Assembly: GCA_008632985.1 (NCBI GenBank)
Contig: QPGO01000095.1
Span: 183,681 to 247,680, forward strand
Source: Psammoneis japonica
Taxonomy: Eukaryota
DNA length: 64,000 bases
Reading direction: 5' to 3'
The translations under genes were made by a program, and so were the position numbers. This document shows, in pieces, positions 2,203 through 47,962 of this stretch; position 1 is the stretch's first letter; each line of letters starts with the position of its first letter. The notes below the pieces were generated by a model. It saw only the letters and a list, made by a program, of their open reading frames with translations. It made no database searches and had not been told where the DNA came from.

Positions 2203-2828
2203 TGAAATATGATTCAGCAGTTGTTGTAGTTGAGCGGTGCCAGTAATAGGATGGATAACACAAAGCTATAGAAAGTGCATTTCTCTGCTGCTGGTCTCAT
2301 TGCTTGTGCTGCGTGCCTCATTTACGTCGTCGTCTTGTTGTTCTCATATGTTTTTCCTTCGTGCCCCAGCTACACCGTCGTCTTATTGCCCCACCAAGTG
2401 ACAGACTGGTTCATCGCAGGGTTGTTCAAGAAATGAACAGTAGCCGGCACGAACTCAGAACTGCTGCGCCAGTTTTGGCGGGGAGTCATGTCATGGGTGC
2501 TCTTGTCAGGACTTCAGACTTTGTTTCCTTCCAAGCAAAACCACTCCTTGTGTCCAACCCCCCACTGGTCTGCACTGTGGTGTCTCCTTGTGGTTTTTCT
2601 CTGTGGGACTTGCAAAAGAGGAAATGCACCCCATGTTGCTTGTCATGTTGGCTGCACTTGCTGCAACAGCCACAGGAAGTGACTGGCAATGGTGGGTGTC
2701 TGACTGATGAGCAGCATGGAAGTCACCCTGGTCAGGGACAGCAAAGAGAGCTTCTGCATCCCCTGGGAACTGCATGCACAAAAGACAAACATGCAAACAT
2801 CTCAGTGACTCTCTGACCTGATCTCTCC

Positions 2829-3104
2829 TGACAGAAATTGAAGGCAAATGGCAAGAATTCAAACAACAACTCCTTGCTGCTGTCTAAATGGCAGATGAGT
2901 CTCCGCTCAGAGACCGTTGCAGGAGCCGAAAGACGTGTAAGTCAGTGCAATCGGGCCACTGTTGTCATTCTTGTGAGCCTTGTGGCTCGAAAGCAAACTG
3001 CATCGCTCGTGAACGCGCGGAACCAAAGCACACAAAACTGTGCACGGTAAACTAAACAGCGCGCGATGCTTCGCGCGCACCTGAATCCTGTTCAAATCCT
3101 GTCA
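2829..3104 (-). repeat. 3' LTR (outer) of copia element 1, heavily TpA-mutated
   Basis: Aligns end to end with 10088-10363; 15 differences by eye. Confidence 0.95.
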
Positions 3105-4275
3105 CTCCCCAGTTTGCTTGAGGAGCCACAGAAACAGATTCGACTTCGGATGGAATGAAGTTCCAGAACATGAGGGGGCGGAGAAGGTCCCAGATTTGGG
3201 AGTGACCCCAATGCTTGCTGAGAATGTCAGCAGGGTTGCGGGAGCCTTCGATGAAGTGGAACTCAAGGTGACCAGAGGCAATTGCCTCACGCACATGGTG
3301 GAACGACAGTGCGGTGTGTCGCTTGTGTAACTTGGAGTGCGGGATGGTGGCACTGTCTACAACCGACTTGTTGTCACCGAACATGTAACTGACGTTACGG
3401 ATCGGGACGCCAAGGCAGCGCAGGGTGATGCGCAGGTCGACAATCTGCTCAACACAAGTCCTTGCGGCAACAAATTCAGACCCGCAGGTCGCAGTCTCCA
3501 CGGTGGCTTGTTTCTTAGAGAACCAATCAGCCGGGAATTTGTTGAGGAAGTGGAGCATTCCCATGACAGAGCGTCCGGTGAGCATGCAATGGTGCAAGTT
3601 TGCATCGACGTAGTGGGTGGCAGTGACGAACTTGCCAAGGGGCGGTGGAGCGTCCTTCGGGATCATCTCTTCTGCTTCACCACACACGGAATGCATCCAT
3701 TCACAGGCCGGAGCAGGGAGATCCGAATGGTCGGGCTCTTCCGCACGAACGCGGAGAGCACCGTGTCGCATCTTGGAGAGGTGCCCACAGACGCGTTTGG
3801 CACGATCCAAGTGGCCTTGACGGGGCGCAGCTCGGAAGCTAGAGAGTGACATGACGGCCGTGGCAATGTCAATTCGACCAAGGGACACTGCCCATTGGAG
3901 TGAACCAACAAGAGACTGGAACTTGTGAATGCCATCGGGTCCCAGCAGTTCGGAAGTGTCCAGTTCGGGGTGGTCACCCTTCTCTAGAGGTGACAGGGCG
4001 TTGGTGGCAGGTTTCTCCCCAAACAGTCGGGCACAGCTGTCGACCATGCGCTCGATGTACTTGCGCGGAGACAGGCACAAGGTTCCGTCGGGTTCCCGGG
4101 AAAAGTCGCAACCCAGATGGAACTCAATGGGTCCCGCACCCTTGAGCTTGAACTTGTGCTTTTCCGTGAGAGTGTCGACGAAGGATTGAGGGTCCTTCAT
4201 GGCAATGGCGAGGTCATCCACATGGGCGGCAATGCATTCATGGTGGTCGCCGTTCCTGCGCATCCAAATGTCGGG
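3105..4275 (-). pseudogene. Extra copy of the 3' part of pol (RT C-terminus + RNase H)
   Basis: Near-identical to 4552-5722; RT motif reads HVDD instead of YVDD; ends abruptly at the internal LTR. Confidence 0.9.
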
Positions 4276-4551
4276 TGACTGAAAATGAAGGCAAATGGCA
4301 AGAATTCAAACAACAGCTCCTTGCTGCTGTCTAAATGGCAGATGAGTCTCCGCTCAGAGACCGTTGCAGGAGCCGAAAGACGTGCAAGTCGGTATGATCG
4401 GGCTGCTGTTGTCATTCTTGTGAGCCTTGTGGCTCGAAAGCAAACTACATCGCGCGTGAACGCGCGGAACTAAAGCACACAAAGCTGTGCACGGTAAACT
4501 AAACAGTGCACGATACTTCGCGTGCACCCAAATCCTGTTCAAATCCTGTCA
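4276..4551 (-). repeat. Internal (second 3'-type) LTR of copia element 1
   Basis: Full 276-bp LTR copy adjoined by the PPT complement CTCCCCAG at 4552. Confidence 0.92.
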
Positions 4552-7500
4552 CTCCCCAGTTTGCTTGAGGAGCCACAGAAACAGATTCGACTTCGGATGG
4601 AATGAAGTTCCAGAACATGAGGGGGCGGAGAAGGTCCCAGATTTGGGAGCAACCCCAATGCTTGCTGAGAATGTCAGCAGGGTTGCGGGAGCCTTCGATG
4701 AAGTGGAACTCAAGGTGACCAGAGGCAATTGCCTCACGCACACGGTGGAACGACAGTGCGGTGTGTCGCTTGTGTAACTTGGAGTGCGGGATGGTGGCAC
4801 TGTCTACAACCGACTTGTTGTCACCGAACATGTAACTGACGTTACGGATCGGGACGCGAAGGCAGCGCAGGGTGATGCGCAGGTCGATGATCTGCTCAAC
4901 ACAAGTCCTTGCGGCAACAAATTCAGACCCGCAGGTCGCAGTCTCCACGGTGGCTTGTTTCTTAGAGAACCAATCAGCCGGGAATTTGTTGAGGAAGTGG
5001 AGCATTCCCATGACAGAGCGTCCGGTGAGCATGCAATGGTGCAAGTTTGCATCGACGTAGTGGGTGGCAGTGACGAATTTGCCAAGGGGCGGTGGAGCAT
5101 CCTTCGGGATCATCTCTTCTGCTTCACCATGCACGGAATGCATCCATTCACAGGCCGGAGCAGGGAGATCCGAATGGTCGGGCTCTTCCGTACGAACGCG
5201 GAGAGCACCGTGTCGCATCTTGGAGAGGCACCCACAGACGCGTTTGGCACGATCCAAGTGGCCTTGACGGGGCGCAGCTCGGAAGCTAGAGAGTGACATG
5301 ACGGCCGTGGCAATGTCAATTCGACCAAGGGACACTGCCCATTGGAGTGAACCAACAAGAGACTGGAACTTGTGAATGCCATCGGGTCCCAGCAGTTCGG
5401 AAGTGTCCAGTTCGGGGTGGTCACCCTTCTCTAGAGGTGACAGGGCGTTGGTGGCAGGTTTCTCCCCAAACAGTCGGGCATGGCTGTCGACCATGCGCTC
5501 GATGTACTTGCGCGGAGACAGGCACAAGGTTCCGTCGGGTTCCCGGGAAAAGTCGCAACCCAGATGGAACTCAATGGGTCCCGCACCCTTGAGCTTGAAC
5601 TTGTGCTTTTCCGTGAGAGTGTCGACGAAAGATTGAGGGTCCTTCATGGCAATGGCGAGGTCATCCACATAAACGGCAATGCACTCACAGTGGTCGCCGT
5701 TCCTGCGCATCCAAATGTCGGGTTCGGCGCGGCAGGGGAAGAAGCCTTCAGCTCGCAGGCAGTCGGCGAAGCGCTCGTGCCAGCGGAGACCGGAGCTGCG
5801 CAGTCCATGCAGTGCCTTGTGGATGACAAGGATGTGTCCTTCGAGTTTGCCAAACTCGGGTCCAGCTGCAATGTAAAGCTTCTCCTTGGTGGTGGCTTCA
5901 AGGCAGGCATTGCCAATGTCGGTGGCCCATGTCTCCAACTCGTTGAGTTCGGCCAGGAAAATCATCAGCCGAAGGCCATGGAGGGAGACTGCTCCGGAGC
6001 AGACACTGTCGACAGGTGCGTCCGTGAGGTGCCCGTCGGCTGCGAGTCGTGCCTTGTGGCGACCGTCGTGTTTCACGTCGCACGCTAGGTGCACTCGGAT
6101 CTTCTTGTGTCCCGCAGGAGGAGTGGAAGACTTGAAGGGCCCGCAGTCATGGAAGACTTCGTATTCGTCGAGTTGGTCCATCTCGAGATTAGTTGCGTCT
6201 CCCCACTTGCGGTTGCCGTTGCGTTCGTCTAGTGACATGGCGTGTTTGCAGTTCCGGGGAACTTCGCATCCACACTTGCAGCGAGGTGCAGTGCGGAAGG
6301 AGCGAAGCTTAGCTTGGTTGCTGGTGAGGCTCACTTTGCCAGCTGGAGATGAAGAGGGCTCGTAGGATCCCGAGCACCTTGTTGCTGATCTCAACTTGAG
6401 CACGGTCGCCAATGAGTTTGGATGGGGCACCACGCTCACGGATCTGATCCTTGAGTGTGTTGACAAACTCTTTGTCCGTCTTGGTGCCGCAGACGTCAGT
6501 GACGGTAGACTCGGTGCCAACAAACAGTTGGGTGCTGGTGCAACCAGAGTCGACGGCCGGGGTGTCGGCACAAACGGTGTCAGTGGCGACAGGCTCGTTG
6601 CGGCGGTGCACATTAAGGGCGGGGTTGGGTGATTTGTAGGCCTTGCGAAGGTGTGTACTGGCGGGCATGCAGGCGTGCTGCGTGGTGCAGTCAAAAGCAC
6701 GACGGACCGTGTCGGCAGGTAAGAAGCCAAAGCAAGGCCGAAGAGACTCGAAGGGGGGGTCCTTGGGCTGTACAGTGCGCTCCGGAGGTGGAACATTGTC
6801 GCCCTGGGGGCCAATCGCATGCAGATGACACTCGTAGAACACGTCGTCGTTCGGAATGAGGTGATCATCGAGGGCGGATGCGTGATCGGCAGACAAGGAA
6901 GCGGACATGATGGTCTCGTTGACAACGACACGATGACGGCAGTTGCCGCATTCGTCAAATGGGTTGGCAGTGGGATCGTCCTGTGGGTCAGAGATCACGT
7001 CGCACCACTGGTCGTCGTCAGTGACAGAGTGATCGAGGACGGAAGGGTCCCATGTGTCATCACCGGTGAGGATGACATGGGGCAGGGTGTCCCATTCGGC
7101 GTCAGTGCAAGGTCGCATGGCAACATGAGGCAGGCCAGCCTTGATGTCAATGGGGATGACATAGCCATCAGGAGTGGCAATACGTTGCAAGCCGTTGGGC
7201 ACCTTGACAGAGCGATCGTTGACATCCTGTTTGTGCCATTCGAGCTGGCCGCAGGAATGGATGGTCTTGCCCTTTCCCGTGTGAGCGCACTGATGGAGGA
7301 TGGCGATGACGGGACCACGCTGGGTCTCAACAACGGCACCAGCGGTGACAATGGGGATGTCCACCAATTGATGATCGTCAATGCCCTGAACGTCGACTTG
7401 GCGAGAGGTGCGTGCAATGACGCGAACGTCGTCGCCAGCAATGCCGCCGTTGGCCCCACGATCAACTAGAGCACCAGTGCGTGTGGAGCGATGAGCAGAG

Positions 7501-9158
7501 GCAGAGTAAATGACATTGTGGTTGTTGACGCGGCGGCAAGTGCGGCCGTTAAGTTCCATGTCATCTGCAGAAGCTGGCGGGGTAGAGGAAGCGGCGGATG
7601 GCCCCGGTCGACTGGCATTGTGGGCTTGGTTAGGAGACAACAGACGTTGCAGATCACCGGGTGGCAGTGGCTTGCGCTTGGTGAGGTGCGCCAGGATGGG
7701 ATTGTCCGAAGTGGCGTCCACATGTGGAGCGGAGTCACCAGAGTCAGCAGGAGTCGTGTTGGACAAGTTGACATCACCGTCACTCCCAAGGTGTTGGTCG
7801 TGAAGGTTGGCCGTAACAGACTCATGGTGGTTGCTGGCTCGCGGGTTGCGGGGAGGTGGACGAGAATGCTCAAGGATGATCGCCTTGGAGGAATCGGGCA
7901 ACGAATCCCAGAGCCGTTGGTGGTCGGGAGGGAGACGTCTCCATTGGACACCGGTGAGGCTGGGACCGCGGGTGCAGGCAGCATTGGCTTGAAGGACGTC
8001 AACGTCGCTGTCAATGTCGTAGAACACATCGTCGGACGGTTCCTCGGAGCAGACGTCGTGTGCGCACATGGCGCGTCGGGGAGCTCGAGGTGTCGTCTTG
8101 GGTTGAAACGTGCTGTCGTGCTGAGCTGCCGCGGAGAGGAGCAAGCCACAGTGTTGATCGCATGTGAGGCTCTTGCCACTCTGCGTGCGATGCTGATCAG
8201 CTTGGTTCTTGACAGCACGGAGTTCCTTGACAGGGTGCACGGCATTCTCGAGCATGACGCGCTTCTGTCCTTCAGAGAAGTGGTCACTGGCCGGGATGAG
8301 TGCCTCGCACTTGCGCAACTGATCTTGCCAATGAAGGATGAACCCGTGGGTCGGACCTTTCCAAGTGCCATCACCAAGACGCGCGGTGGTGAGGCACGTG
8401 AGCAGGGTGGAGGACTCGACAGATGCGCGAGTGGAGGCAAGCGCGTGCTCAGACAAGGAGCGGTGGACGGTCTGTGCGTCAGAAGACCCCACATTTTCGC
8501 GGATGAGAGCCTTGCCCTTGTCGGTGAGAAGGATGCGTTCGAAGATGGCGAACACGCACTTTTGCTGTTCAGCAAAGAGCAGTTTGTCTTTGGGGCTGGT
8601 CGGTTTGTACGACGAGTCTAGAATGCACTCGACGTCTTGGGCACGGGCTTGTGCCACAAGTGAGGTGTGCCAAGTGTGCCACTGCTTGTCGGATTTGAGA
8701 GCCATGAAAGCGGTGGGATCATGCTTGATGCCTCGCTTGAAGTCCCGCACCGGGTCGCGTGCCTTGGTCGGGTTGGTGACATGTGGAGGTGCAAGGGGTG
8801 AGCTGCCGATGGACACAGAAGACATGCAGTCGGGGCTGAGGCGGTGGGCAAGGAACTCGTCATGCGCGAACAAAGAGGAGTCGTTGGCAACGTCAAGACC
8901 TTTGTGTGCTTTAACAATGTACAGACTGACCAGTGCTGCCAACATGTTCTCATGGCCACGGGGCAAAGGGATTGCATTGGCGCCGTTGTCGCACTCAAGC
9001 GAGTCGATTTGGGGCGGCATGAACGTGAATGGTTCCTGATGTGAGTCCGTGCCGTCTTGGGCCAAAGCCAAACAAAGAGGACTCCCAGCACCTTGGGCAA
9101 GCACGGTTCCAACCACATGCTCGAAACCATCGGTTTGTTGCTGACGAGTGAGAACCAT
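4499..9158 (-). pseudogene. copia gag-pol of element 1 (gag, protease, truncated integrase, RT, RNase H)
   Basis: Probable start MVLTRQQQ at 9158; protease LVDRGANGG; RT YVDD; RNase H YVDANL...GDNKSVV...NPADILSK. About 1010 bp of the integrase region is missing relative to element 2 (junction ~6317-6320), with a frameshift. Confidence 0.92.
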
Positions 9159-10087
9159 GGCAGACAAAAATGGCGTCAGGACAATCAATTCTGGTTGGGA
9201 AGCGAAGGCAGACTCGAAACTTGGGTGAGAACAGACTTGACTTGAAATCTTGAACTGTCTTAAAATCAGAAGTCGCCGGGCTTTGTTGTCCCGTTCGTTG
9301 TTGAGTGCTAAACTTCCCATCCGGTCCGCAGAGTTGTGCCGGCACGTCCAAACCCGCAGCCAACGGCGCTTTGGGTTGCTTGCGAGCGGAGTGGCGGGTT
9401 GTAAACCCCTGCAGGTGAGCTGACTGGAGGTGGACAAGACCCCCGAACCGTTCTCATTTTATGTTGGTTGGATTTCCCGATCAGGCTGGCCAGTTGACGC
9501 AGGCGTCAGGCGCTGTGGACGAACGAACAAACGTGGGAAAGCACTCTCGCCCCAACGCAGGCTGCAACCACGGCTGCTTGCTCTCACAGTCGTCCTCGTG
9601 GACCTGGCAGAACTGCAGAGCACCAGTAGTCCGGGGTAGATCAGGTACAATGGACTCGGTGTGCCTGTAGAGTGGCAGCAAAACCGCAGTCCGAAGAGTG
9701 GGTGCAGGTTCTTGGCCGTGAAGACACACACATGTATATATATATATGTCTTCAGCGACGAAGATCCTTGAATATGTAGGGTTCTTGACCGTTAACCGAT
9801 GAATGGGTATATCAAGGGATGAGGATCAAGGATAGACTTGGATATGACCGTTGAATGTATGTCTTCAGCGGTCAAAAGTAGTATAATCAATCCAGATATC
9901 CAGCGGTAAGGAGACTTGACGGTGACGTTAACTTCCTGCCGATGCCCTGGTATCGAATGCGCGTAGACTTGCCGATGTATGTAGAATATATACGGAGGTC
10001 CACGTAGAATTGAAATAGCGTCGTTGGTAAATCAACGACGACGATGGCGGTTGCTCAATGGGTTGACAATGAGCAAGACTGTTAATC

Positions 10088-10363
10088 TGACAGAAATTGA
10101 AGGCAAATGGCAAGAATTCAAACAATAACTCCTTACTGCTGTCTAAATAGCAGATGAGTCTCCGCTCAGAGACCGTTACAGGAGCCGAAAGACGTGTAAG
10201 TCGGTATAATCGGGCTACTGTTATTATTCTTGTGAGCCTTGTGGCTCGAAAGCAAACTACATCGCGCGTGAACGCGCGGAACTAAAGCACACAAAACTGT
10301 GCACGGTAAACTAAACAGCGCGCGATACTTCGCGCGCACCTAAATCCTGTTCAAATCCTGTCA
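10088..10363 (-). repeat. 5' LTR of copia element 1, apparently unmutated (17 TpA present)
   Basis: TGACAG...CTGTCA, flanked by TSD TCTCC and a PBS-like sequence. Confidence 0.95.
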
Positions 10364-12638
10364 TCTCCTGCAGCAATCTACCAACCTTTTCAGATGTCCA
10401 ATTTGATGTCACTGCATGTGTCTCAGTTCTGGTCAGGTTGGGTCCCTTCACCCAGTTGCCTGCACATGCACAGTGCGCAAATCTCAAACCAGCCCCCCCC
10501 CCCACATGCTGGGTTGCCACACCACTTTGGGGAACACAGAAATTGCATCAGAACCTGCAACAGCCTTCTGATTTCTGTTTCCACATTTGTTTGTCAACCA
10601 TGACCATAAATGATGATTCAGGCAGCTGTTTGATGTGCTCCCAACTTGACAACCAACTTTGCTGCCACAAAGCAGCCACACTCTCTTTTCCTTCAGCACA
10701 TTTTTTACAAACAAAACACTCCACCACCTGTGTGCACAGCACCACACCTTCCCCACAGCACCAACTCAAACAGACAAGAAAATTTGCATGCACCACACAC
10801 CACTTGCTGTGCACCAGCCACCCCCACAGCACAAGAGGACAAAAAGCTGCCCCCACTTAAGATCCACTCTGTCAACTCAAAAGCATTTGCCATTCTTGTC
10901 TTGGTTTGAATGACATTTGTCAGTTCCTGTCTGGTCTGCGCAGGAACCCATTGGAAGAAGGAGGTCCTTCTCTGGATCAAAATCTTTGGGGAGATTGTTG
11001 CAAGTGCTCGAGCACCATTTGTTGCATGCTGTTTCTCCAAGGTTGCAGCCATCAATGGGAACAAACTTGCAGAACCCTTCCTGCATCAATTTTGTTGAGA
11101 TTGTGATGGTCTTCAAAAAGGGAGTGGGCAAGCATGTCCCTCAACATGTCCTGCATTTGGGAACAAGCAACTTGGCACCCACAAATGATGCATGTGTCTG
11201 GCTTGGGCATGTGCACCTTCTTGTGGAGGTTTCTCACCAACCTTTTGCACCAAAGATCCTTGGATGCATTGAACTCTTTTTCTTGATGCAGAGCTGTTGC
11301 AGCAGGGTGAGCAGCAGATTGTCATAAAATCCTCTTGTGGCACTGGAATTGTCACACAGCCAGTGTGATCAGCTGAAGAGAAGCTTCCTCAGCCAATGCA
11401 AAGCTGCACCCAAGTGGGGAGGATGACTGTTCCCTGCCAACATCAGAGGGTTCTGCCAGCAAAACATGCCCTTCATTGATGCCACAATTGTGGGCAGAGT
11501 TGGTGCTGGGAAACATCTCAAAAAGAGACAGCTCATTCTTGTTGTCTTCATCAGAAAGTTGGTGTCAGTGGCATCATCATCTTGTTCATTGGATGCTCTG
11601 TTCTCAACATCCAAATCAGCAGCAGCAAAGTCAACATCATGTCCTGCCATTGCACCAGGGGACAAAAGGGAGGAAACAGCTGAAGCCCCAGAGTGGGGGA
11701 GGTGATGTTGGAGCTGTCCAAAGTGTTTCCAGAGGTGCCAACAGAGATGAAGCAAAATTTGCAAGAGGACAACAGTGAGGACTCCTTGTCCTGTTGTTGA
11801 TGAACATTCAACACAGTGGCTTGGGACAGCATGCCCAAATCACTGGCCATGACATTCACACACCCAATTTGGTTGGGGCTTGAAGTGGCAATGGCAGGCA
11901 CAAACCATGTGCAAGGATCAAATTGCAGGGGGGGGGGCAACCAAGATCAACTCAAACAAAAGGAAAATTGTTGGAAGCAAGTGAACTGATTGATTTCAAA
12001 TCAGATTGTTGAGCAAGCATTGGTGTTGATTGAGAAAGCATGTGCACCCCAGCTGGACAGACACAATTGTTGAACAACTGGAAAACAGAATTTGAAAATT
12101 TGGACATTCAGACATTCAGTCAAAGGAAATTGAATTGTTTTTGAAACTTGGGTGAGTAAATTCAAATCACACAAAAGAAGTGAACATCAAAGAATGCACA
12201 AAATCAATGACAATCTAATCTTCATGTCAGAAGATTTGCAAATGGAGAAGCACTGGGAAAACAAACCACACAAAAAACAATGTGGAGACATGGCAACCAT
12301 GGTGCAGAGGGAGATCAATCCAGCTGAGTGGGTGGACAATGACAAGAAGGTGGGCAGAGACACAGTCAAGGTGAGAGACCATGTCAAAGAAAAGGTGTTT
12401 CTCAGCATCACATTTGTGTTTGATGCAATGCAGTTGGAGGAGACCGGCGTGCTGCACAGAGACTGCACCCAGAATTGTGGACCAACGTCAATGGATGGAA
12501 TGCTTGTGGAGCTTCCAGAGGCAAAGAAGAAGACATGCCTGCATTTCCTGCAGATGAAAATGAAACAACAAACCAGACTGCACCAGGACTGGCTGGCAAT
12601 GAAGCAATCCAATTGCCCCATGCAACAACAGATTTTGG

Positions 12639-14610
12639 TGTTGTGAAAAATTGTGAGACCCATTCATTCAGAGAACATGTGTGCATGACAGCAAGACATG
12701 AAGAGCTTGAGTCCTTGCAGAGCCAGTCATGCTCCATGCTGTGCACATCTTGTACAGACCCTTCGTGCAAGGTGAGTCACTTGCGCAATGGCCAGTTGCA
12801 CCAGTCTCAGTCACATGCTCCCAAAGCCCATCGTGGGTCGTACACCAGGAGTCATGATGCCTGCTGCACTTGCCCCTGTGACAAGGTTGTGTGAGTGACG
12901 GAAAGGTCCTGGTGCTGGCAAGGGACAATTTGTTGCATGTCACATGCATCCACCAGCATGCCTTCTTGCACACAAAGGGTGCCATTGTCTTTGACTTGAA
13001 CAATTGCAGCTGGCCCTGGCACCTGCACAACTGTCAGTGCCAAATTTTGCCCATTGTTCCTGCTTTGCAAGCACAAGTTGTCCCTTCATGCATTGGCACT
13101 CTCCCCTCCTTAAGTTCTCATGCTTGTTGTTCAAGCAGATCAATTTCTGCTTTCTGTTCTGCACACACCTCCACTTGGCATGGTGGGCAACAGACAACAT
13201 TGCATCACGTCCAAAGACTGGTTGCATCGAGATCACCTTGGCAGCAGTGTGTGCAGTTGCATGCGCAGCAAAGGCTGCTGCAGAAAGTGTGCCTGCCCAT
13301 GGGTTGTCTTTGTCTAACTCCATGTCCTGTGCTGAGAAAGTGCACATCATGTCACCAATTGTCTGCCTGATGTGCATGTTCCATTGTGGAGTTCACCTGT
13401 GGGTTGCATTTGGAGACAGGTCTGGCCTTGAGTTCACAGTGTTTGAATCATTCAACTGAACTCAGCCACACAAACTCAGCACCTGTGTCAAGTGTGACTT
13501 TGCTTGGCCATGGATGTCTGCACAGCCATGTCTGCTCAATGATGTTTGCCACCACATCTGCATGTTTGGTGGCCATTTCTGCAATCTTGAAAATTGTCCA
13601 GTCACTTGATCCTTTGTGGGCAATTTTGCAGGGCCACATTAAATCTGCACACAGGCCTCCCAGTTGGGGGTCAACATTGGGCATGTCACCCTCACATCCA
13701 ACTGTCCATTGGTTCTGCACACACATTTGACCCAATGAAGCATGCAATCTTGTGTTGCATTAAAGACAAATGTTTGATGAAAATTTGAACTCAATGCTTG
13801 GTTTTGAACTCAATGGTCAGATCTCCTCACACACGGAACATGTCATGATGCTGACAAAAAAAAAAGCAACCACCATGGCAAAAGACCAGTGCATGGCAAG
13901 CATCTCCACCAATGCCCCAACAGTGCACACATGCATTGTGACATGTGTGTCATTTTCCCTCACCACTTTTTTGCAGCCTCCTCCAGGCAAAATGGGGGAG
14001 GCCTCCTTTGCAATGTCACACTGATGGCAAGTGCCATTGCTCTGGCAGTCGTGTTGTGAAAAGCACAAACATCACTGCAAGGGGCATGCTAAGTCAAGTG
14101 CTGTGACTCCACCCTCTGGGCATGTGTTCTCTCCAACTGCATGGCTTGACAAGGTCAAGAAAGGGTGGCATTTCCTCACTGGTGCAGCCACTTGGGCCAT
14201 CAAAACTCTGCCCTCAACATTGAGGAGTTCTCAACACAAGCCAAGTGTCAACAGGGTTGGCAGGCCACTTGTCTCTCCTGCATCCCCCCAGCAGTTTCCA
14301 CTGGTGACACTGCTGCCTTGGACCCTCACTGCCTTGCCCTGTGCAAAAACAAGGGTCTGAGTGCTTGGTCATGGAGATTTGGGTGTTTTGTGAAAGTTGT
14401 GAGATGATTTTGCATGGAGCATGCGTGCGCATGACAGTGAGACATGCAAAGCTTGAGTCCTTGCACAGAACCAGTCACACTCAGCCGGTGCTACATGCAT
14501 CCCATGCAGACCCTCCACACAAGGTGAGTCACTTGCATGATGACCAGTTGCACTGGTCTCAATTGCATTGATCTCCTGCAGACCATGGTGGGTCTTGTGC
14601 TGGGAGTCAC
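12639..14610 (-). mobile_element. Deleted Ty3/Gypsy relic: integrase 3' part between ~230-bp degenerate direct repeats (probable LTRs ~12639-12870 and ~14385-14610)
   Basis: Fragments TWLCRHPWP, NPWAGTLSAAAFA, PVFGRDAML, NNKHENLRR resemble the Gypsy integrase C-terminus. Shared GAGCTTGAGTCCTTGCA...CAAGGTGAGTCACTTGC blocks at both ends. Confidence 0.6.
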
Positions 14611-16120
14611 ATTTTCCAATGTGTGCTTCTGCGTGATCACAGGCTCAAGTTCAAGAAATGGGCTGGCATGTCACCTCAATGGAAAAATGTTCAACATGCA
14701 CAACTCAGGATGATTTTACATGTGCTGAATTGCAGTCTTTTTGAAAAACATTTGGTCCATCATTTGTCCATCAGATTGTGGACTTTGGTGACCCCACATG
14801 CCTTTTTCACCACAACACAGCATGACACAATGGAGCCGTCATGCCATCACAATTTTGAGCACAATGGAAGGTGGGGCATTGGTTGCCAATGATTGCATTG
14901 GTCCCTTTTGACACTTGAAAGGCTTGAATGTGTTGTCGTCAACCAATGCCCCACCTTCCTTCATTGCAAAAATCCCATCTCTTTTTTGCCATGGCCATGC
15001 CATGCACCAAACGTTGTGTGATCTTATGAGCGATGACAAGGTGCTTGCATCTCTGCATGACCCAGCACTTGTCATTTGAATTTCCAATTTTCTCACACCA
15101 ACACAATCAACCATCATCATTGTTCCTGTGGCCATGGCACCCAGCAAGAAAAAGAGCAGCACTGCAGGAAAGAAAAAAGTGGTTGCCCCATTAAAAAAAG
15201 AGTTGACAATGCTCTCATTCTTTTGACAGCACACGTCTTGGCAAGCTCTGATGGGAAATGGCCAAGTGCAGGATGCATTCACTGTGTGCTCTAGAACAGT
15301 GGCATTCCAGGCAGAACAATGAACCAAAAGTGACATGTTGGATGCAATCCAGAAGGGATCTGGATCCAAGGGCTTGGTTGCATTTTGCAGAAAGTCCAGT
15401 GACAATGAAAGGTGCCACCATTCATTGTGATTTGAACCCAGTCCTGATGCTCCAAATCTCAAGCCATTGTTCATGTTGAATCATTCTGGGTCAACTTGTC
15501 AGCATGTGGTTTGTGTGATTCCCTTGTTGAGTTTGTTGATGCTCACATTGCACAATCCACCATCAGGTCATGTGACAAGGTGGATGCCAGCCACTGCTGA
15601 TGAGAAAGCTCCTGTTGCACCTGTTGCCAATGAGCCTCACAATGACTTGATGCCATGCCCTGGTTGGGGTGGAGAGAAGCACAAGCAAGTGACATTGATG
15701 TCTGTTCAAGACAACTTGGAGGAAATGGAAGAGCAGTCTGGAAATCAAAATGGAGCAATGTGTTTGTGGCAATTGTGACTGTGGCGGCATCAATTTTTTG
15801 AATCACTTGGGCAGAAGCTTCACTCTCAATGTTGGGTGGAATGTCATCATGTTCTTCAAATCATCCTCTTCTTCAACCTCTTCAGATGACTCAGCTTCTT
15901 CTGGCACAGTCATCATGGCAAACAACAGTGCTCTGCACTTCAGTGTTGGAGGGAGAAAAGATGATGGCAATTCCCAGACTGCACGTAATTTCAGCACTGA
16001 AATATGCACAGACAATGCAGCAAAAAAATGCATGGGCCAACCCATCTTCATTTCTTGAACTTGAGCCCACACCTTGCCTGTGGCAGGATCAGCATTGCTG
16101 TGGACATCCTGCAGACACAC

Positions 16121-17490
16121 GGACATTCCCAAGTTGGCCAACTTGCAAAATTTTTTCTTGAATGTGACATTGATGACATTCTTGTTTTGGCAATCCTGAC
16201 AGGTTGAGACATTCACACATGCATGTTTTTTTGCCCTGTGAAATTTACAGTGAAGATCCAATTTTTTTGTAAAATCTGCAGCCACAAAGGAATGAATTGC
16301 ATTGAATGACCTGAAATGCCTGATGAGCAAAAATGCTGTCAGTTGTTGGGAGTTAAGTGAGAAATGTTGTGAGTTGTCGAGAGCACTTGCATGTCACATG
16401 AACATGCAATGCAACCAATCAAATGTTTTAATTGAGATTTCTTAAACAGATGCATGCTGTCTGCAGAATTGTTGCAAGTCAAGTGAAATTTTTCATGAGT
16501 TGTTGTGATTTGTCGTGATTTGTCATGAGTTGATGTGAGTTGTCATAAGTTGTCATGAGTTGTCATGAGTCACAAGTGCTGTTTGACAATTGTGACTTTC
16601 ATGTGGGTGACTCATTCTTGAGTCATTGTGCTTTTGGCAATGAGAATGCCTCCCCAGATTGTCTTCTTAAATGATGCATGTTTTTTATGGCACATTTGCA
16701 TCACAATGCATGACATTGGTTTGGCAACAAAACACAACAATTGATGGCAATTGTGTGTTGTTGATGATGCTGCTTGCCTGGGACATTTCCAAATCTGCCA
16801 TCTTGAGACCATTTCATCAAAATTGTTGATGCCTTGATGACATGTGATCACCATCAATTGTCATGTTTTTGTTGCCAAACCAATGTCATGCACAGTGATG
16901 CACACATATCACCAAAACACACATTGATGAAGACAATCTGGTGAGGCATTTTGGTTGCTAAAAGCACAATGACTCAAGAGCAAGTCACCTGAATGAAAGT
17001 CACAATCATCAAACAACACTTGTGACTCACAACAACTCATGACAACTCACAACAAATTTCACTCAATTGCAACAATTCTTCAGATGGCATTCGTGTGCCA
17101 AGCAACATCAGTTGGTGTGCTCAATTGCTTGAAGTGCATTTGTCTGATGTGTGAGCACTCTCAACTCACAACAATTCTTGCTTGGCTCCCAACAACTCCC
17201 AACAACTCCCAACAACTCACAACAACTCATGACATTTTTGGTTTGTCAGGCATTTCAGGTCATTCAATGCAACAACCTTGGCAATCAGCAGTTTTTGCCA
17301 AAATGATCATTGTTTGTTCATTTGTGGCTGTAGATTGTGTGAAAGGATTGGATCTTTGCTGTCAATTTCACAGCCAAATCAACATGTGTCAGCAAATGTC
17401 ACAACTTGTCAGGGTCGTCAAAACAAGAATGTTGTCTGTGTCACATTCAAGAAAAGAAAATTTGCAAGTTGGCCAATTTGGGAGTGTCCC
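16121..17490. mobile_element. Foldback/long-TIR non-autonomous element (~630-bp inverted arms, ~100-bp spacer, internal 10-bp tandem repeats)
   Basis: GGACATTCCCAAGTTGGCCAACTTGCAAA (16121) is close to the reverse complement of TTTGCAAGTTGGCCAATTTGGGAGTGTCC (17461-17489). The arms also match at ~16698-16747 vs ~16851-16900. GTTGTCATGA/ACAACTCATG arrays in both arms. Confidence 0.8.
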
Positions 17491-17499
17491 AGGGACACC

Positions 17500-18000
17500 T
17501 GCTGCACTCACCCCTGCAGCATGACAAGGTTGCACCAGTGAAAGAAGGGCCCCACTGCTGGCAAGGGACATTTTTGAAGTGTCCACCAGCGCACCTTCTC
17601 ACACACAAAGAAAGTCATTGTCATTGACTTGAACAATTGCAGCTGGCCCCACTGCACAACTGTCAGTGCAAAATTTTGTCCATTGCTCTTGCTCCCCAGC
17701 ATCTGTTGTCCCTTCATGCATGCGTTGGTGCTCTCTTCTCTTAGAGTTTTCATGCTTGTCATTTGAGCAGATTAATTTTTGCTTTCTGTCCCAACCACAC
17801 CTCCTCTTGTTTTGTGATGGACAACAGACAAAATTGCATCATGTCCAAATGCCAGCTGCACTGGAGTTGCCTTGGCAGCAGTGTGTGCAATTGCACGTGC
17901 AGCAAAGGCTGTGGCAGAAAGTGTCAGCCCATGGGTCTTTTTTGTCCAACTCCATGTCTTGTGCAAGTGTCAAGTTTCCAATTGTCTGATGTGTGCACTC
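17500..18000 (-). pseudogene. Second Gypsy integrase 3' fragment, related to 12880-13370
   Basis: QDMELDKKDPWADT / ATAFAARAIAHTAAKATPVQLAFGHDAIL parallels the 12940-13377 ORF. Confidence 0.65.
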
Positions 18001-18639
18001 CACTGTGGTGTTCCCTGTGGATTGGAAAAAAAAAAGGCGGCACATTGATGCACGTGTGCAGAGTTGATCAGGCTCCACTTTCTGTTGTGGCAACACCCCT
18101 TCTGTCTTTGACAGGCTGCACTGTGCTCAAAGAATGAGTGCAAATGAAAGTTGAGTGAAGTGCCAAAAGTGAAAACTGAGAGTTGAAGTTTGTGCTCAAT
18201 CATTTTGGGTTTCTCCAAACAAGCTCTCAATGGCCTGAAGCTTCTGCACTGTTTCCACAGACAAAAGGCCTTTCGGAGAATGCAATCATGACAACAGATT
18301 GTCCCAGTGTGATTGCTGTTGACACATGAGATGTCAGCATCATTGAGCAATTGTGTTTGCAATTTTTGACATCAAATCAACTCTGTGTGATCAGTCTGTC
18401 CTTCATGCGAACCCATGACTGACGCACGATTGAAGTGTGACAACATTTCAAATGTGCGCACATGTGCACATTGCATTTGCCCCCCCAATTGCACATCAGA
18501 GTCAATCATTGAACAGTGTCATGCAACAGATGTTGACAGTGTCAATGACATCACTGCATTTGATTTGCACTGTGCCACTGCTGGCATGTGCCGTTGTTGT
18601 TGCACACAGTCCAGCATGGGGCTGTTCTGACTTTGGGAT

Positions 18640-21600
18640 CATTCTTGAGCAGCATCTTTTCTCCCACTCTGCACGCACATGGAGCACATCAAGCATTTTC
18701 TCAAGCATCATTTTCATTTGTAATTTCTTGCTTTTGTTTCTGGACAAACTTCAAGTCAGTGATGTGTTGGATGTCAAAAATCATGTCTCTGTTGAAGACC
18801 AGTTGTCCTGGTGCAGCTTGCACAGCAGTGTGGCATGCAGAATGTGCAGCAAAAGTCATTGCTGACAGTGTGCCAGAGAATGGATTGTCTGCATCCAGGG
18901 GTGCATTTTGCAGGTCAAATGTGTGCAGCATGTTGCCCAGTGCATGATGCACTCATTCAACAACTGTGTTTGCTTGCAGATTTCATGGCCAAACAGCACA
19001 TTTGAGAACTCCTTTGGTGTCTCCACAACAGACAGTGGCTCTTTTTCCATTGCAGCACAATGCGTCTGTGCTCCATTCAGCTTGTGGCTGCAGAAGGCAA
19101 CAGGTTGGTTGTTCTCCATGACAACTGCCCCCAATTGAGAATTGCTTGCATCAGCGTGTGTCTCAAAGGGTTCATTGAAAAAAAAGATGATGCTCTTCAC
19201 ATTTTTGAAGGCATTTTGTTCCATTTTGGTCCATCGCCACTTTGCCTTAGATGAGGTGAGTTTGGCCAAAGGAGCAAAAATGTGAGATCATTGAGGCCAC
19301 ATGTCTCAACAGCAGTTGATCACACTGACAATGCACTGCATTCCTTGTGAGTTTTGGGAGATGCAATGGCATGAATTGCCTCCACTTTCTCAGGCATTGG
19401 GCTGACGCTGTTGTGTGTGAATGCCCAGACAGTCTGCTTTGGATTTGGCAAAGAAAGACTTTTTGGCATTGACCTTCAATCCAGCTTGTTCAAGGCCCAT
19501 GAACACTGTTTTAAGCTTGTTGAGGTGGTGTTGAAAATCACCTTTGGCAAGGCACAGCTCATGGTCAACACAAGTTTTGATGAATTCCAGACCTGCCATG
19601 AGCTCACTCATGCGCTCTTGGAAAATGTCTGGATGTTTGCCCCAAGGCATGACAATTGTGCACAAGCAATGTGCTTGTGGAGTTTTGTGATGGCATCCCA
19701 TGTTTAAATCAAGTGAGGTGGCACACAATGCCATCAAGTTTCTGCAGCATGTCTTGAACATTGGGCGGAGGGAATGGAGCATGTGCCAACCTCTTGCACC
19801 ATCTTTCTTTGGTTGAATGAAGGTTGGAGCTACCCATTCAGAACAATTTGTTTTTCTTGAGACTTTTGACTTGCGCAGTCTTTCAACTTCCTTTTGAGCA
19901 ATCACTTCCAAGGCTTGTGGTGTGGGAAATGGCTTTGCATGATGCGGACTCATGTCTGAATTCAACTTGAGATCCACTGGTTTCTTTTTAAGAGGAAGTT
20001 CAGCTGCTTCTCTGTTCCTCTGGAGTTGGATGAGTTGCTGCTGCAGTCACATGTTGAGGTCAGCAGTGTGACAATCTGAGCCAAGGATCTGACTGACCCT
20101 GTCATTGAGACCAATCACGGCATGAGATTCCTCAATGTGATTGGCAATCAACTTGAAAACATTGGCATTGAGGAGTGTGTCAACATTCTTCATGGGTGTG
20201 GTTGTGTCCTCCCATTTAATTTCTTCATTTGCAGTGTCTGATGTGATCTCAAGACTTGGCATGAAGTTGCATCCCATGATCACATCATAAGGACTCAAAG
20301 GAGAAGGGATGTCATCAACATGCACCTTTGTTTCTGTCATCTCGTGTTTGTCAAATCCAGGCAAAGAGAACTGGATTTTGCACTGACCATCAGTCATGAA
20401 GAACCCTCCTTTGGTTTCCCAAATTTTGGTGGTGGATTCTTTTGTTCTCAGTTTCCATGTGAATTTGTGAAAAATTGTGGTTGACAATGTTCCACTGTCA
20501 AGGAGAACATGCAGAGGCTTTTTTTTTTTTGCTTTGCCTGAAGAGGCATTCATGTGAGCAATGACTGCTGTGCTAGCATGAATTGCTTTGACCCTTTTCT
20601 GGGCTTCCCAATGTCCAGCAGAGTGCAAGACTCCTCAAGCAGCACCAGTCATTCTTCAGAATTGCTGTGCATCATTTTTTCAAACTGACAGTTTTCCTTG
20701 CTGAGGGCATCAGAGCCATGCTCCTTGCTCTTGCGCTTTGCCTTGTTGGTGGAAGAACTTGTTTTGAGAGTGTTTCTTTGAACTGCCTGAATGATCATGG
20801 CATTCAACTCTTCCTTGTGAGGGCATTTTTGTTGTTGCAACATGACCACTTGCAATTGCCATTTGAATGGCACTGTTTGAAATCACACTTGCAGTTTCCA
20901 CAGCATTCTTTTGCCAGTCTTTTCATGACCCAGCACTTGTCCGTGTCATGAGTGGTTTTTTTGCAACAATTGCACCACTCATCAGACTCAGATCATTTGG
21001 TGCCAGATTGGTGACCATTTTTGAAACCATGATTGGATCCATCCTTGACTTTTGATCCAGGTCTGTTGCTGGCATCAGCCATGACATAAGTGAAGTCAAA
21101 GACATCCTCAGCAACCTCCAGACACTCCAAAAACTTGACCAACTTGTCAAAGGTGTGTTTCAAAATTTCAAAACCTTGAACAGTTGATTGGCACTGCCAT
21201 TCACAAGGTGCAAAATTGCAGAGGATGTCCTTGAGCTTGTTGCCCCCAATCTTCTAATCTTCCTTGAAAGGACAATGGAACTTGAGATCTTTGTTCACTT
21301 CTTGGACCCAAGAAGTGGCAATCACTCCAATTTTCATGCTCTCTGGATTCTTGAGATTGCACTGCAAATGACGCTTCTGAATTTGAAATGCATTCTTGGG
21401 GGAAAACATGTCTTGCAAGGTGCTGTTGGCATTTTTTGAAGGCTCCATTGGCTGTTTCATCTTTGACATTCACAGCAACATTCTCAAATGCATGCAGAGC
21501 ATCTCCCTGCAACAACACATGCATGAGGTGGAACTCATCTGCTTGCTTCTTGATGTTCTGGCCCACCAAGTTTTGTTCGCAGCTCTTTAGAAATTTGATG

Positions 21601-22050
21601 TGCTTGGGAATGCCTTGCTTCTTGCAATGCTCAACATTGACAGTGTGGGTGCAGCCATCCTTCTTTTCTGGGTGAAAACACTGTTCCATCTTGAGGCATT
21701 GGCTTGGTTTGAGTGTCTTTTGCTTGGAGATTGATTCCAACCACACATCAACAATTTCTCCTGCTTGAGAGAAGACTTGGCATTGGCAACATGAGGTGAA
21801 AGCTTCATTTTTGTCTTGTTGCCTTCTGTGGTGTGTGCACACAATGCACTGTGCTCAAAGAACAAGTGCAACCAAAAGTGGAAAAAGCATGAAAAGTAAA
21901 AATTGTGAGATTAAATTTTGCTCAATCATTTTGGGTTCCTCCAAACCAGTTCTCAACAGCCTGAAGCTTCCATGCTGGTTCTACAGACAAAAGGCCTTTT
22001 ATGAAATGTGATCATGACAACAGATTGTTCAAATGCAATTGCTGTTGACA
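18640..22050 (-). mobile_element. Degenerate Ty3/Gypsy element (gag, protease, RT, RNase H, partial integrase)
   Basis: Minus-strand order: gag-like (21201-21842), protease VLLDSG (20047-20628), RT-like SEWVAPTFIQPKKDG...SLDLNMGCHH...CVDH (19390-19977), RNase H HADASNSQLGAV...EKEPLSVVE (18856-19269), integrase SAMTFAAHSACHT...PGQLVFNRDM. A ~200-bp block at ~21847-22050 recurs at ~18118-18325. Confidence 0.8.
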
Positions 22051-22342
22051 CATCCTGTCCATGTGCAGTGGGATGGAAGCACCACTTTCTAGACTCCGCT
22101 TGCGGGGGTTGTGGATGCATGGGCTTGAAAGTCTGTGTGGGCAGTGGCTCTTGGCTTGATGTCCCCAAGCAGAAATCATTGCCAATGCCTCATTCAGCCA
22201 TCCAGTTTGTCTTTCCCCACTTGAGCAGATTGGCCTGTTCTTGCTTGGTGTGGTGTGGTTGTGGTGGCACATGTTCCACAATTGTTGTTGTGTTGGCCAA
22301 TGAAATGGCATGGCAAGCAGCACGGTGCTCCCTTTGCATCTG

Positions 22343-23430
22343 TCAGCAAAGCAACATTGTCATGAGCACACCACTGTTTGACATTGTGTGACCCCACACA
22401 TCAGGGCACTCTTGCAGGACTGTGAAATGCTTGTCATGGTGCTCATTGTGCACAATGGAGTTGTCACCTGGCATGCCTCCTTGCCCTGCTGCCAGTGGTT
22501 GTTGGGGGATTGCACATTCCAGGGGCTGCACCGCCGGCTCATGTGCAATGGTTGGCAACTCTGGCCACCAGCAGAGTGCTCCTTGGGCTGTTTCTGCCAC
22601 TGCCAAGAGCAGCTGGAATGGGACAAGGTTGTGCAAGCATGATTGTGTCTGAAACCAATGACACAATTTGACCTGTGCACAACATTGCAGGTCCGCTGGC
22701 AAAGTTGGGTGCAATGTCACTTGGGCTGCCAAGTCATTGGCATGCAAGTCCATGGACTGGCGCATGTGGATGAGCCACTGAACAACATGGTGCGTGACCT
22801 CAAAGGCCACTGGGAGGATGATGCACAGCCTGTCAAACCACTGCTGAAATGCCTGAACAGTGGTGGCAACAATGGCATTGTTGGGCACCTCCAACACTCT
22901 GGTGTCGGCCAGGGATGGTGTTCCATCACCACCATGCATTTGCTGACTCATGGCATTGTGGCAGGCTGCTTGCTTGGCTTGCTCCGGTGTGGTGACACCA
23001 AATGGAAATGGATTGATGCCTTGCATTAATTTGTCTTTGTTGTGCCTGGCAATGTCAATCTGTGTGAGCTCAGTGACCAAACTCACCGTGACCAGTGCAC
23101 TGAAGTGCAAGTGGTGTGCTTGGCATTGCTCATCAACTGCATTGTGTGTGGTGGCAATGCACCCTGTCTTGGGTGATGCTGCCACCAACTGTGCCCAGAG
23201 TGGGGGCAGATTGTCCTGATGGTGGACTTGGCACAAATGCGCGAGCTTTGCAACACCAAATTTGCCACAGAATTCCATCAGCATTTTTCTGTGTGCTGCC
23301 ACTTGCTGCCTTGCAATTGTGTCCAATCATTGCTGGCACTGCTTGGCCATCAGGTCTTGGACAGCCATGACCACCCAGTTGAGTTGACATGGTGGCAGTG
23401 GCTGGCCCACATGGTGTGGGAGGTCTTGCT
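22343..23430 (-). pseudogene. Degenerate ORF of unknown, probably transposon, origin
   Basis: 327-aa Tyr-free ORF with protein-like segments (LPPLWAQLVAA, GINPFPFG) inside the mutated domain; family not recognised. Confidence 0.35.
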
Positions 23431-23450
23431 AAACCATGGGGATGAGTGGT

Positions 23451-25614: not shown

Positions 25615-26052
25615 CAGTGAGCACCTTCATTTTGTGGGAAAAAGCCGTCAAACAATTCAGCGGACAAATGTGTTTCAAAATGGTCATGTCTCCGCCACAA
25701 ACCCCATCATCCGAGCAAACTCTCAGTGCCTTGCCCCCCTTTTTGCACATGAGGAACAATTTGTTTCACTCACCCTCTTTGTCGGAAAACGCGATCTGAG
25801 AGAAATGGTGTGGAGTTGGTGCAAATTTTGCACACATTGTGGAATTCGCACCAAATCTGTGCTGAATGACTGAGCACGAGTTTCTGGAGAAAAACAAATG
25901 GCAGAACCAAATTTCTCGCATGCCAAAAGGGCGGGGGGTGAGGCACTGAGGGTTTGCTCGGATGACAGGGTTTGTGGCAAAAGCATGATCATTGAAACAT
26001 GCACACCCGCTGTCATTTGCGGTTTTTTCCCACAGCATGGAGGTGCTCACTG
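25615..26052. mobile_element. MITE with ~130-bp terminal inverted repeats
   Basis: CAGTGAGCACC...CATCCGAGCAAACTCTCAGTGCCT is mirrored by AGGCACTGAGGGTTTGCTCGGATG...GGTGCTCACTG. Confidence 0.75.
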
Positions 26053-26493: not shown

Positions 26494-26528
<35 letters not shown>

Positions 26529-47957: not shown

Positions 47958-47962
47958 GCACT

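Follow-up and report, generated by a model that had tools for sequence, protein, structure and literature searches.

How can two copies of one and the same long terminal repeat (LTR), lying close together in one young insertion, meet opposite mutational fates? This question is raised by a stretch of 64,000 nucleotides from the diatom Psammoneis japonica (contig QPGO01000095.1, positions 183,681 to 247,680), which in its full length is called the window and is numbered here from its first letter. It harbors two Ty1/copia insertions of one family, E1 and E2, both on the minus strand. In each of them the 5' LTR and the leader adjoining it are rich in the dinucleotide TpA (TA), whereas the interior and the LTRs on the 3' side are poor in it, and a sparing that depends on position and takes place after integration is well supported within these two elements.

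Assignment to the Ty1/copia type is based on an RVT_2 domain, which Pfam detects in the open frame of E2 (E=8.6e-25, residues 1278-1489 of 1816) and in E1 (E=9.8e-24), and on direct LTRs of the TG...CA form with short target-site duplications. Because each element possesses its own 5-bp target duplication, E1 and E2 are separate integrations, and their minus orientation follows from the strand of RVT_2, from the purine run GGGGAG that adjoins the 3' LTR, and from the position of the E2 frame (48186-53636). Self-comparison of the window delimits a true LTR of 276 bp with the termini TGACAG...CTGTCA, copies of which are situated at 10088-10363, 2829-3104, 4276-4551, 47963-48238, and 54797-55072. 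A model that had seen only the sequence (the sequence-only reading) had treated 9730-10363 as one LTR with an identical 3' counterpart. This has to be corrected, as only 10088-10363 recurs and 9730-10087 is a single-copy leader behind the 5' LTR, found once per element; the identity of the 3' counterpart holds for the 276 bp and not for the rest of the block, which has no twin. The possibility that the 634 bp constitute one LTR with an unalignable 3' twin was ruled out, since the 3' LTR of E2 begins right at the target duplication. The features of both insertions are listed below; o/e stands for the ratio of observed to expected dinucleotide counts.

2824-2828 and 10364-10368, no strand: target-site duplication of E1, TCTCC, 5 bp, read directly
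2829-10363, minus strand: copia element E1 with three LTRs, from RVT_2, LTR matches, and tblastn with the relative P0123
2829-3104, minus strand: distal 3'-type LTR of E1, hypermutated, 13 of 17 TA sites lost
3105-4275, minus strand: second copy of the last 1171 nt of the E1 interior, forming a tandem unit with the LTR
4276-4551, minus strand: middle 3'-type LTR of E1, hypermutated, 10 of 17 TA sites lost
4552-4562, minus strand: polypurine tract, in sense orientation AAACTGGGGAG, adjoining the LTR
4552-9437, minus strand: internal coding region of E1, hypermutated, TA o/e 0.19, CpG o/e 0.90
9438-9729, minus strand: downstream part of the E1 leader, TA-poor with 5 TA
9730-10087, minus strand: spared upstream part of the E1 leader, adjoining the 5' LTR, 31 TA, 14 of them in the favoured GTA/TAC context
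10088-10363, minus strand: 5' LTR of E1, spared, 17 of 17 TA sites and 20 of 20 CpG kept
47958-47962 and 55073-55077, no strand: target-site duplication of E2, GCACT, 5 bp, read directly
47963-55072, minus strand: copia element E2, from LTR matches and target-site duplication
47963-48238, minus strand: 3' LTR of E2, hypermutated, 13 of 17 TA sites lost
48186-53636, minus strand: open frame of E2, 1816 codons, a single frame that is still open
54440-54796, minus strand: spared leader of E2, 30 TA, o/e 1.05
54797-55072, minus strand: 5' LTR of E2, spared, 15 TA, two CA variants in common with its own 3' LTR

Retention of TA along the two elements

At the 5' end of E1, TA occurs at an o/e of 1.08 in the spared leader and of 0.88 in the LTR, and the 5' LTR of E2 shows a value of 0.81. 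In contrast, the bodies contain only 41 TA in 4886 nt (E1, o/e 0.19) and 56 TA in 5912 nt (E2, o/e 0.21), and in the three 3'-type LTRs 4, 7, and 4 TA are left (o/e 0.24-0.41). CpG remains near expectation within the elements, with o/e values of 0.8-1.0. The transition is abrupt, as TA density per 100 nt jumps from 0-4 to 9 at position 9700 of E1, and the same step is encountered in E2. The sequence-only reading had described this distribution, TA-rich blocks next to TA-poor bodies and 3'-type LTRs, correctly, and its observation that the spared zone of E1 is situated between two mutated zones is borne out as well, since the TA-poor body lies on one side and an outer flank with 3 TA and 1 CG (10500-10999) on the other.

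A comparison site by site is possible for the LTRs, where the 17 positions with TA in any of the five copies were scored. All 17 sites are kept in the 5' LTR of E1 and 15 in that of E2, whereas the middle LTR of E1 keeps 7, its distal LTR 4, and the 3' LTR of E2 also 4. TA sites are therefore lost at 2 of 34 places in the 5' LTRs versus 36 of 51 in the 3'-type LTRs (Fisher p=1.3e-9), and CpG sites are changed at 0 of 40 versus 6 of 60 places (p=0.08). The two 5' LTRs differ at 10144 and 10341, and the CA variant of E2 is present at both sites in its own 3' LTR too, just as had been noticed from the sequence alone; once these two shared variants are removed, the loss in the 3' LTR of E2 amounts to 11 of 15 sites. 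Because the same 276 bp meets opposite fates inside one insertion, the LTR sequence does not set the target, and the earlier claim to this effect is upheld.

The spared block of E1 consists of about 630 bp, i.e., the 5' LTR and the first 358 nt of the leader. It is not built of cold sites, because 22 TA in the favoured GTA/TAC context survive within its 634 bp, which corresponds to 35 per kb versus 4.9 per kb in the body. For the leader, which has no mutated twin as a reference, sparing is suggested by its TA density and by the low divergence between E1 and E2, and this sparing is relative, as 5 of about 33 leader TA sites differ between the two elements. A very small difference between the blocks, implied by the sequence-only reading, applies to the LTR with its 2 sites but does not extend to the whole 634-bp blocks, which differ at 10 sites and by a 6-nt indel at the edge; 8 of the 10 sites are located in the leader (2.2%). 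E1-E2 divergence is 0.4-2.4% within the block and 5-7% just on the body side of its edge, so that the downstream leader part 9438-9729, with 5-7%, ranks among the most divergent segments of the element.

The edge itself is marked by the palindrome GAAGAC-(CA)n/(TA)n-GTCTTC (9720-9753), and (TA)n is also found at the edge in E2. In E1 the body-facing half of the palindrome reads CA in place of TA, and folding of 9720-9753 as DNA gives -10.8 kcal/mol with a z of -2.74. A search for structured RNA in the spared region (9300-10500) gave no Rfam match at E up to 1. Within the 3'-type LTRs, TA loss is lower on the CpG-rich U3 side (8 of 18) than on the R/U5 side (28 of 33, p=0.004). The U3 side (10258-10341 and its equivalents in the 3'-type LTRs) contains the CpG-rich palindromes GCGCGCGAAGTATCGCGCGC and CGCGCGTTCACGCGCG.

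The outer LTR pair of E1 shows 15 differences (13 at TA sites and 2 at CG sites, 5.4%) and that of E2 shows 12 (11 at TA sites and 1 at a CG site, 4.3%). All 27 differences thus reside in TA or CG sites and none in the 202 other positions, which means that the insertions are very young and, judged by ordinary sites, of age zero. With an apparent divergence of 4-5% against 0 of 202, dating by LTR divergence is invalid in this genome unless TA and CG sites are masked, and the sequence-only reading was right in stating that such dating overestimates the age of the elements.

Direction, independence, and strand symmetry of the changes

The direction of the changes can be deduced from the encoded protein. 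For this purpose 25 related polyproteins, each 1800-1950 residues long and picked from the 120 listed matches in the order of listing, were compared with the E2 frame in an alignment. At 46 columns where Tyr is present in at least 70% of these 25 relatives, E2 has Tyr at 13, Cys at 20, His at 8, Phe at 4, and Trp at 1, and while conserved Tyr is changed in 72% of cases, Ile is changed in 26% and each of the other 11 residues in the table in 0-16%. Tyr makes up 1.0% of E2, as compared to a mean of 3.8% in the 25 aligned relatives and 3.0-5.0% in the 120 listed. Conversion of TAY codons to TGY or CAY, which accounts for Cys or His at 28 of the 46 columns, is equal to a change of TA to TG or CA. 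Because conserved Tyr has turned into Cys or His, TA is the ancestral state, the bodies are hypermutated, and the TA-rich block is unmutated. The reverse assignment, in which the TA-rich block would be the mutated state as in the TA-making direction that repeat-induced point mutation (RIP) takes, was ruled out by the same Tyr columns. A control element from another organism (L001, the nearest unmutated relative for which DNA was available, 60% protein identity) has a TA o/e of 0.47-1.25 along its length; its terminal repeats contain 24 and 23 TA, only 2 of their 20 differences fall on TA sites, and neither TA loss nor asymmetry is seen. In public metagenomes an exact 22-nt LTR pattern had 0 matches, and a protein-based scan of them returned only 3 loci, all of them distant unmutated relatives, one being the control L001.

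Despite Cys or His at these 28 columns, E2 keeps an open frame of 1816 codons. Since a stop codon never arises through loss of TA (from TAA only TGA or CAA can be reached), open frames are no evidence of function here. Several long open frames also turn up in frames that do not code, within the elements as well as within the TA-free DNA.

E1, E2, and the two tandem units of E1 were mutated independently. Among 35 conserved-Tyr codons that can be compared between E1 and E2, 22 are mutated in both elements, 8 in only one, and 5 in neither, Tyr codons being lost at 28 of 35 places in E1 and 24 of 35 in E2. In the 22 doubly mutated codons the outcome is the same in 15 and different in 7, and independence with the observed 73% share of TG predicts about 13 concordant pairs. 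E1 and E2 differ at 207 positions, 66 of which form 33 adjacent CA-versus-TG doubles; the remaining differences comprise 52 of TA versus CA or TG, 47 of CG versus TG or CA, and 42 of other kinds. All 33 doubles reside in the body and none in the spared block. Likewise, the two tandem units of E1 disagree in outcome or in state at 6 of 13 Tyr codons. Within the 1448 nt of this unit, 22, 20, and 21 changes are private to one or another of its three copies, and transitions account for 59 of the 63 variable columns. In both insertions TA loss amounts to about 70-80%, or about three quarters, and from the counts we estimate a loss per copy of about 0.7 of the TA sites versus about 0.06 of the CpG sites.

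The process acts on both strands, as outcomes in the body are nearly symmetric (27 CA to 24 TG) and both kinds are present in the 3'-type LTRs (16 CA and 20 TG). A changed T favours a 5' G (27 chosen, 10 not) and disfavours a 5' T (4 versus 13), and GTAG/CTAC sites become GCAG 13 times to 1. Viewed from the opposite strand, an A is changed more readily in T-A-C than in T-A-G. One may speculate that such a preference in context would fit an adenine deaminase. Adenine deaminases of the TadA/ADAT type edit a U-A-C context in the anticodon loop, and the change of GTA to GCA, or of TAC to TGC, resembles it, a resemblance to be taken as a lead only.

With regard to the structure of E1, 2829-4275 duplicates 4276-5722, i.e., an LTR and the final 1171 nt of the interior, at 97.1% identity. 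Because the two tandem units were mutated independently, the three-LTR structure is older than the hypermutation; inspection of the junction did not reveal an internal polypurine tract at the start of the extra unit. E1 is devoid of 1010 nt present in E2 (deletion point 6316/6317, E2 segment 50004-51013). In all four public sequencing runs loose contig ends at 6317 and 6320 lead into other sequence, which fits copies that have the segment missing from E1. A consensus of loose ends at 9360, considered as a different leader in other copies, turned out to be nothing but that same sequence in diverged form. In the public runs there is one contig, with a word depth of 64, in which 2823 is followed immediately by 10364; it represents the empty-site form of the locus, so that the sequenced material looks heterozygous or polymorphic for E1. 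Copies of the family are exceedingly numerous in these runs, with a summed word depth of 37,000-146,000 across 2602-10427 versus 64-70 in unique flanks and with 12,473 contigs, and 273 of the 299 variant places across 2602-10427 are transitions. Among the 40 of 308 variant rows that were listed, none falls within an LTR. Within the window older copies of the family were not found, tblastn with P0123 returning only E1 and E2. Pfam gave no integrase match in E2 or in the unmutated relative P0123 even at an E value of 0.5, and the about 330 residues that follow the reverse transcriptase domain of E2 leave no room for a downstream integrase. A tRNA-complementary site behind the 5' LTR was not seen by eye, no dedicated search having been made.

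Host DNA and the cause of the sparing

The host DNA of the window offers a control in the form of a tandem duplication.

26452-30514 and 33410-37490, plus strand: host tandem duplication of 4.1 kb with a DUF5898 gene, frames of 675 and 677 codons

In its genic part (to about 29200) the two copies are 0-1.6% diverged except for one 250-nt window with 3.7%, TA o/e is 0.3-0.5, and CpG o/e is about 1, whereas in the non-genic part divergence amounts to 6-10% and hardly any TA or CG is left; 12 CA/TG doubles are counted over the whole pair. The duplicated gene itself, at 26.5-29 kb and 33.4-36 kb, shows no further depletion. Because duplicated host DNA, which was never reverse transcribed, shows such doubles, the process works in place, and homology is not its trigger, given that the duplicated gene escapes in spite of 99% identity. 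The proposal of the sequence-only reading that repeat status does not set the target is hereby supported, the more so as the 5' LTR is equally repeated and yet spared. Divergence between the duplicates rises from about 1% to 6-10% roughly 600 nt past the stop codon, so that the mutated compartment has a sharp boundary next to a host gene as well.

Depletion of this kind extends over non-genic host DNA, which at 11-26 kb has a TA o/e of 0.01-0.12 and a CG o/e of 0.02-0.32, with CA and TG at about twice expectation. Genes and their flanks retain a CpG o/e of about 1 and a TA o/e of 0.3-1.06; 42001-44000, which covers the gap between two host open reading frames (ORFs) and the start of a HECT ORF, reaches 0.88-1.06 for TA. 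This non-genic depletion of TA and CG is the background process behind the asymmetry of the elements. Segments at 11001-26000, 29200-33000, 36000-38000, and 46500-47960 have a TA o/e of 0.01-0.17 and a CG o/e of 0.02-0.32, often with 1-5 of each per kb. A weak RVT_1 match on the minus strand (19390-20046, E=0.006, below the curated cut-off) is embedded in TA/CG-free DNA and hints at an origin of the latter from old, decayed retroelements. An adjacent frame resembling LMBR1 is most similar, with about 60% identity, to sequences from Nitzschia, Epithemia, Entomoneis, Thalassiosira, and similar genera, as expected of a diatom host.

We tentatively favour an account, which we regard as nearly but not quite probable, in which a TpA mutator is aimed by position after integration and promoter-type chromatin spares the 5' LTR and leader. 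On this account a fast process, acting after integration, turns TpA into CpA or TpG (T:A to C:G) on either strand wherever DNA is handled by the cell as transposon or silent. Its aim follows position and not sequence; it covers the interior from about 9730 downstream and every 3'-side LTR, and it mutated both insertions before any ordinary substitution occurred between their outer LTRs. The data show the direction of the changes, their independence, their occurrence on both strands and in place, the lack of a homology trigger, and the 5'/3' contrast; the chromatin or promoter cause and the enzyme are inferred. The 5' LTR and leader would serve as the element's working promoter and start-proximal region, and their open, gene-like chromatin may exclude the mutator, much as host genes and their flanks are exempt, and similarly to CpG islands. 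The milder loss on the U3 side of the 3'-type LTRs and the TA-rich host region at 42-44 kb fit such a promoter-type state. The promoter copies at the 3' side would be read through from upstream, silenced, and hence mutated.

Several points weigh against this account. The comparison of 5' and 3' ends comprises two elements and five LTRs in one window. The body of the element, presumed to be transcribed, is mutated while host transcription units are not, so that transcription alone cannot be the protective feature. That each 5' LTR has the alleles of its own element concerns two sites only, and we estimate that this would happen by chance about one time in six. The public runs are possibly the source data of the assembly, and agreement of their contigs with it is therefore not independent support. 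Finally, the three 3'-type LTRs have 8 lost sites in common, with an identical outcome at 6, where 2.9 would be expected under a one-neighbour context model fitted to 40 events in the body (probability of 6 or more, 0.024). This excess of concordance could hint at a shared history or at conversion. Seven Tyr codons are lost throughout the three copies of the tandem unit, and full concordance is seen in only 2 of them. We take the excess to reflect a richer context dependence at hot sites; it keeps a conversion scenario in play, at low probability.

Instead of promoter activity, a cis barrier in the leader might shield the adjacent 630 bp or so regardless of what the LTR does, be it a bound factor, a nucleosome-free TA-rich stretch, or a cruciform of the (TA)n palindrome at 9720-9753 acting as a boundary. 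Both LTRs adjoining a leader are spared and all three without one are mutated, the block ends at a palindromic (TA)n in both elements, and the leader has a GC content of 43% as opposed to 58% in the body. With two elements such a barrier is inseparable from a promoter state. Nevertheless, neither a factor nor a motif was identified, Rfam being silent on 9300-10500, and the partial resistance of the U3 side of the 3'-type LTRs arises far from any leader, so that we consider the barrier unlikely, though worth bearing in mind. A mutator travelling with transcription in the manner of AID, with an onset some 450-500 nt past the start site, would let U3 and the R-U5-leader stretch escape and would hit the body and the read-through 3' LTR. 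The spared portion is indeed U3 plus a start-proximal stretch, and everything downstream to the end of the 3' LTR is mutated on both strands; however, host genes are transcription units too and are not mutated, and the most depleted DNA is non-genic (TA o/e 0.01-0.12 at 11-26 kb). Delayed onset therefore appears improbable to us.

Could the whole element have been hypermutated and its 5' LTR and leader then been replaced by gene conversion, from an unmutated copy or fresh cDNA, over a tract that runs from the palindrome to the element end? The concordance excess described above speaks in favour of such an event, a palindromic (TA)n is a plausible break site, and donors abound, given summed word depths of 37,000-146,000 versus 64 in the flank. 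Yet two steps with the same one-sided tract would be needed in each of two insertions, and since divergence of the body beside the palindrome, at 7%, ranks with the highest, such a tract would need to extend strictly in one direction. In addition, each 5' LTR has the variants of its own element at 10144 and 10341, and 8 leader sites still differ between E1 and E2, all of which renders conversion quite improbable.

Editing of RNA or cDNA before integration, during reverse transcription, would require that the 5' LTR and leader escape by becoming double-stranded first. The similar dose of private changes in the tandem units of E1 and in E2, and the lack of ordinary substitutions between outer LTRs, would agree with it. 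In the replication of LTR elements one minus-strand template gives rise to both LTRs of a new copy, and by this scheme a shared ancestry of the 5' LTRs apart from the 3' LTRs through reverse transcription was ruled out. Late editing of the minus strand could alter the 3' LTR alone, yet in a single polarity, whereas the 3'-type LTRs contain both CA and TG and the body, too, shows symmetric outcomes; changes do not grade off from the primer-binding side, divergence being among the highest beside the spared block, and host DNA that never was reverse transcribed displays the same CA/TG doubles. Editing of the APOBEC type is described as strand-biased (PMC4866542). Taken together, an origin before integration is very unlikely. 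We assign a similarly slight probability to an artefact of assembly or base calling, by which 5' blocks would have been collapsed or polished to the family consensus or bases miscalled where modified. The great abundance of the family and a library type that is not on record for the runs leave room for it, but 10 sites and an indel distinguish the two 5' blocks, which are hence not one consensus, and copy-specific CA/TG doubles in the body demonstrate that polishing did not homogenise the copies. Furthermore, contigs of the runs show 1 difference in 824 nt and 0 in 474 nt against TA/CG-free unique flanks at a word depth of about 64, and no conserved Tyr codon has become CG-N, as would be expected from independent miscalls on two strands.

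Comparison with known systems

Identical sequences 6 kb apart within one young insertion that meet opposite fates constitute a natural experiment, in which the recognised sequence is separated from position, and sequence-based as well as homology-based targeting are ruled out for this process. Following the favoured account further, one might be dealing with a RIP-like defence of a new chemical kind, i.e., an enzyme-driven hypermutator that converts T:A to C:G at TpA, preferentially in GTA/TAC, is aimed by chromatin position rather than homology, and leaves "TpA islands" at working promoters, the 5' LTR and leader of the elements it ruins among them; this wider proposal is tentative and may well turn out otherwise. 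If it were true, about three quarters of the TA sites of a new copy would be erased before one ordinary substitution takes place, and copies would result that have an intact promoter and an open but Tyr-depleted gag-pol, the products of which could be defective and possibly interfering. In open-access papers and bioRxiv, to which the search was directed, no description was found of TpA-directed hypermutation in diatoms or elsewhere, of a mutational 5'/3' asymmetry of LTRs, or of the depletion of TA and CG in non-genic DNA.

RIP, known from Neurospora and other ascomycetes, resembles the present process in being burst-like, in producing dinucleotide-specific transitions on both strands of transposon copies, and in being far faster than ordinary substitution. 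RIP changes CpA to TpA, creates TA and stop codons, and is triggered by duplication. Here, in contrast, it is TpA that is lost (T:A to C:G), and the change is incapable of producing a stop codon. The direction is opposite, as mutated DNA has a TA o/e of 0.01-0.2 and conserved Tyr has become Cys or His, and a duplication of host DNA with 99% identity left the gene untouched. Moreover, the process distinguishes between two identical LTRs of one element, and the host is a diatom.

Somatic hypermutation by AID leaves the promoter and the initial portion of the transcription unit intact and affects both strands downstream, which is reminiscent of the elements described here. AID deaminates C in WRC motifs over a range of about 2 kb in vertebrate B cells. 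A difference is that host genes are not mutated in the window. An asymmetry between LTRs is familiar from proviruses such as human T-cell leukaemia virus type 1 (HTLV-1), where identical LTRs of one element differ in chromatin state according to position. In HTLV-1 it is the 5' LTR that is silenced, and the asymmetry is known as one of methylation and expression, not of mutation.

With APOBEC3 and ADAR the process shares dense, context-dependent transitions in retroelement copies whose frames are damaged. These enzymes are described as acting, with strand bias, on single-stranded cDNA or RNA before integration (PMC4866542). The spectrum found here is not strand-specific (27 CA and 24 TG in the body), non-genic host DNA is mutated in place, and the LTRs of one element differ in both polarities with changes in the 3' LTRs only. 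As to the elements themselves, RVT_2, short TG...CA LTRs, 5-bp target duplications, and a diatom host are features in common with CoDi-type Ty1/copia elements of diatoms, for which heterozygous insertions and hypomethylation linked to stress have been reported (PMC2806351); a search by term in the text of that article returns neither 'dinucleotide' nor 'point mutation'.

A likeness also exists to CpG islands, promoter regions that escape the decay of CpG driven by methylation. In both cases a dinucleotide that is erased from the surroundings persists over a few hundred bp near the start, and CpG changes, too, look rarer in the 5' LTRs than in the 3'-type LTRs. Differences are that the dinucleotide preserved here is TpA and that its rate of loss is far above that at which CpG decays in these copies. 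Should DNA close to promoters be immune to the mutator, TA-rich islands could record past promoter activity much as CpG islands do in vertebrates.

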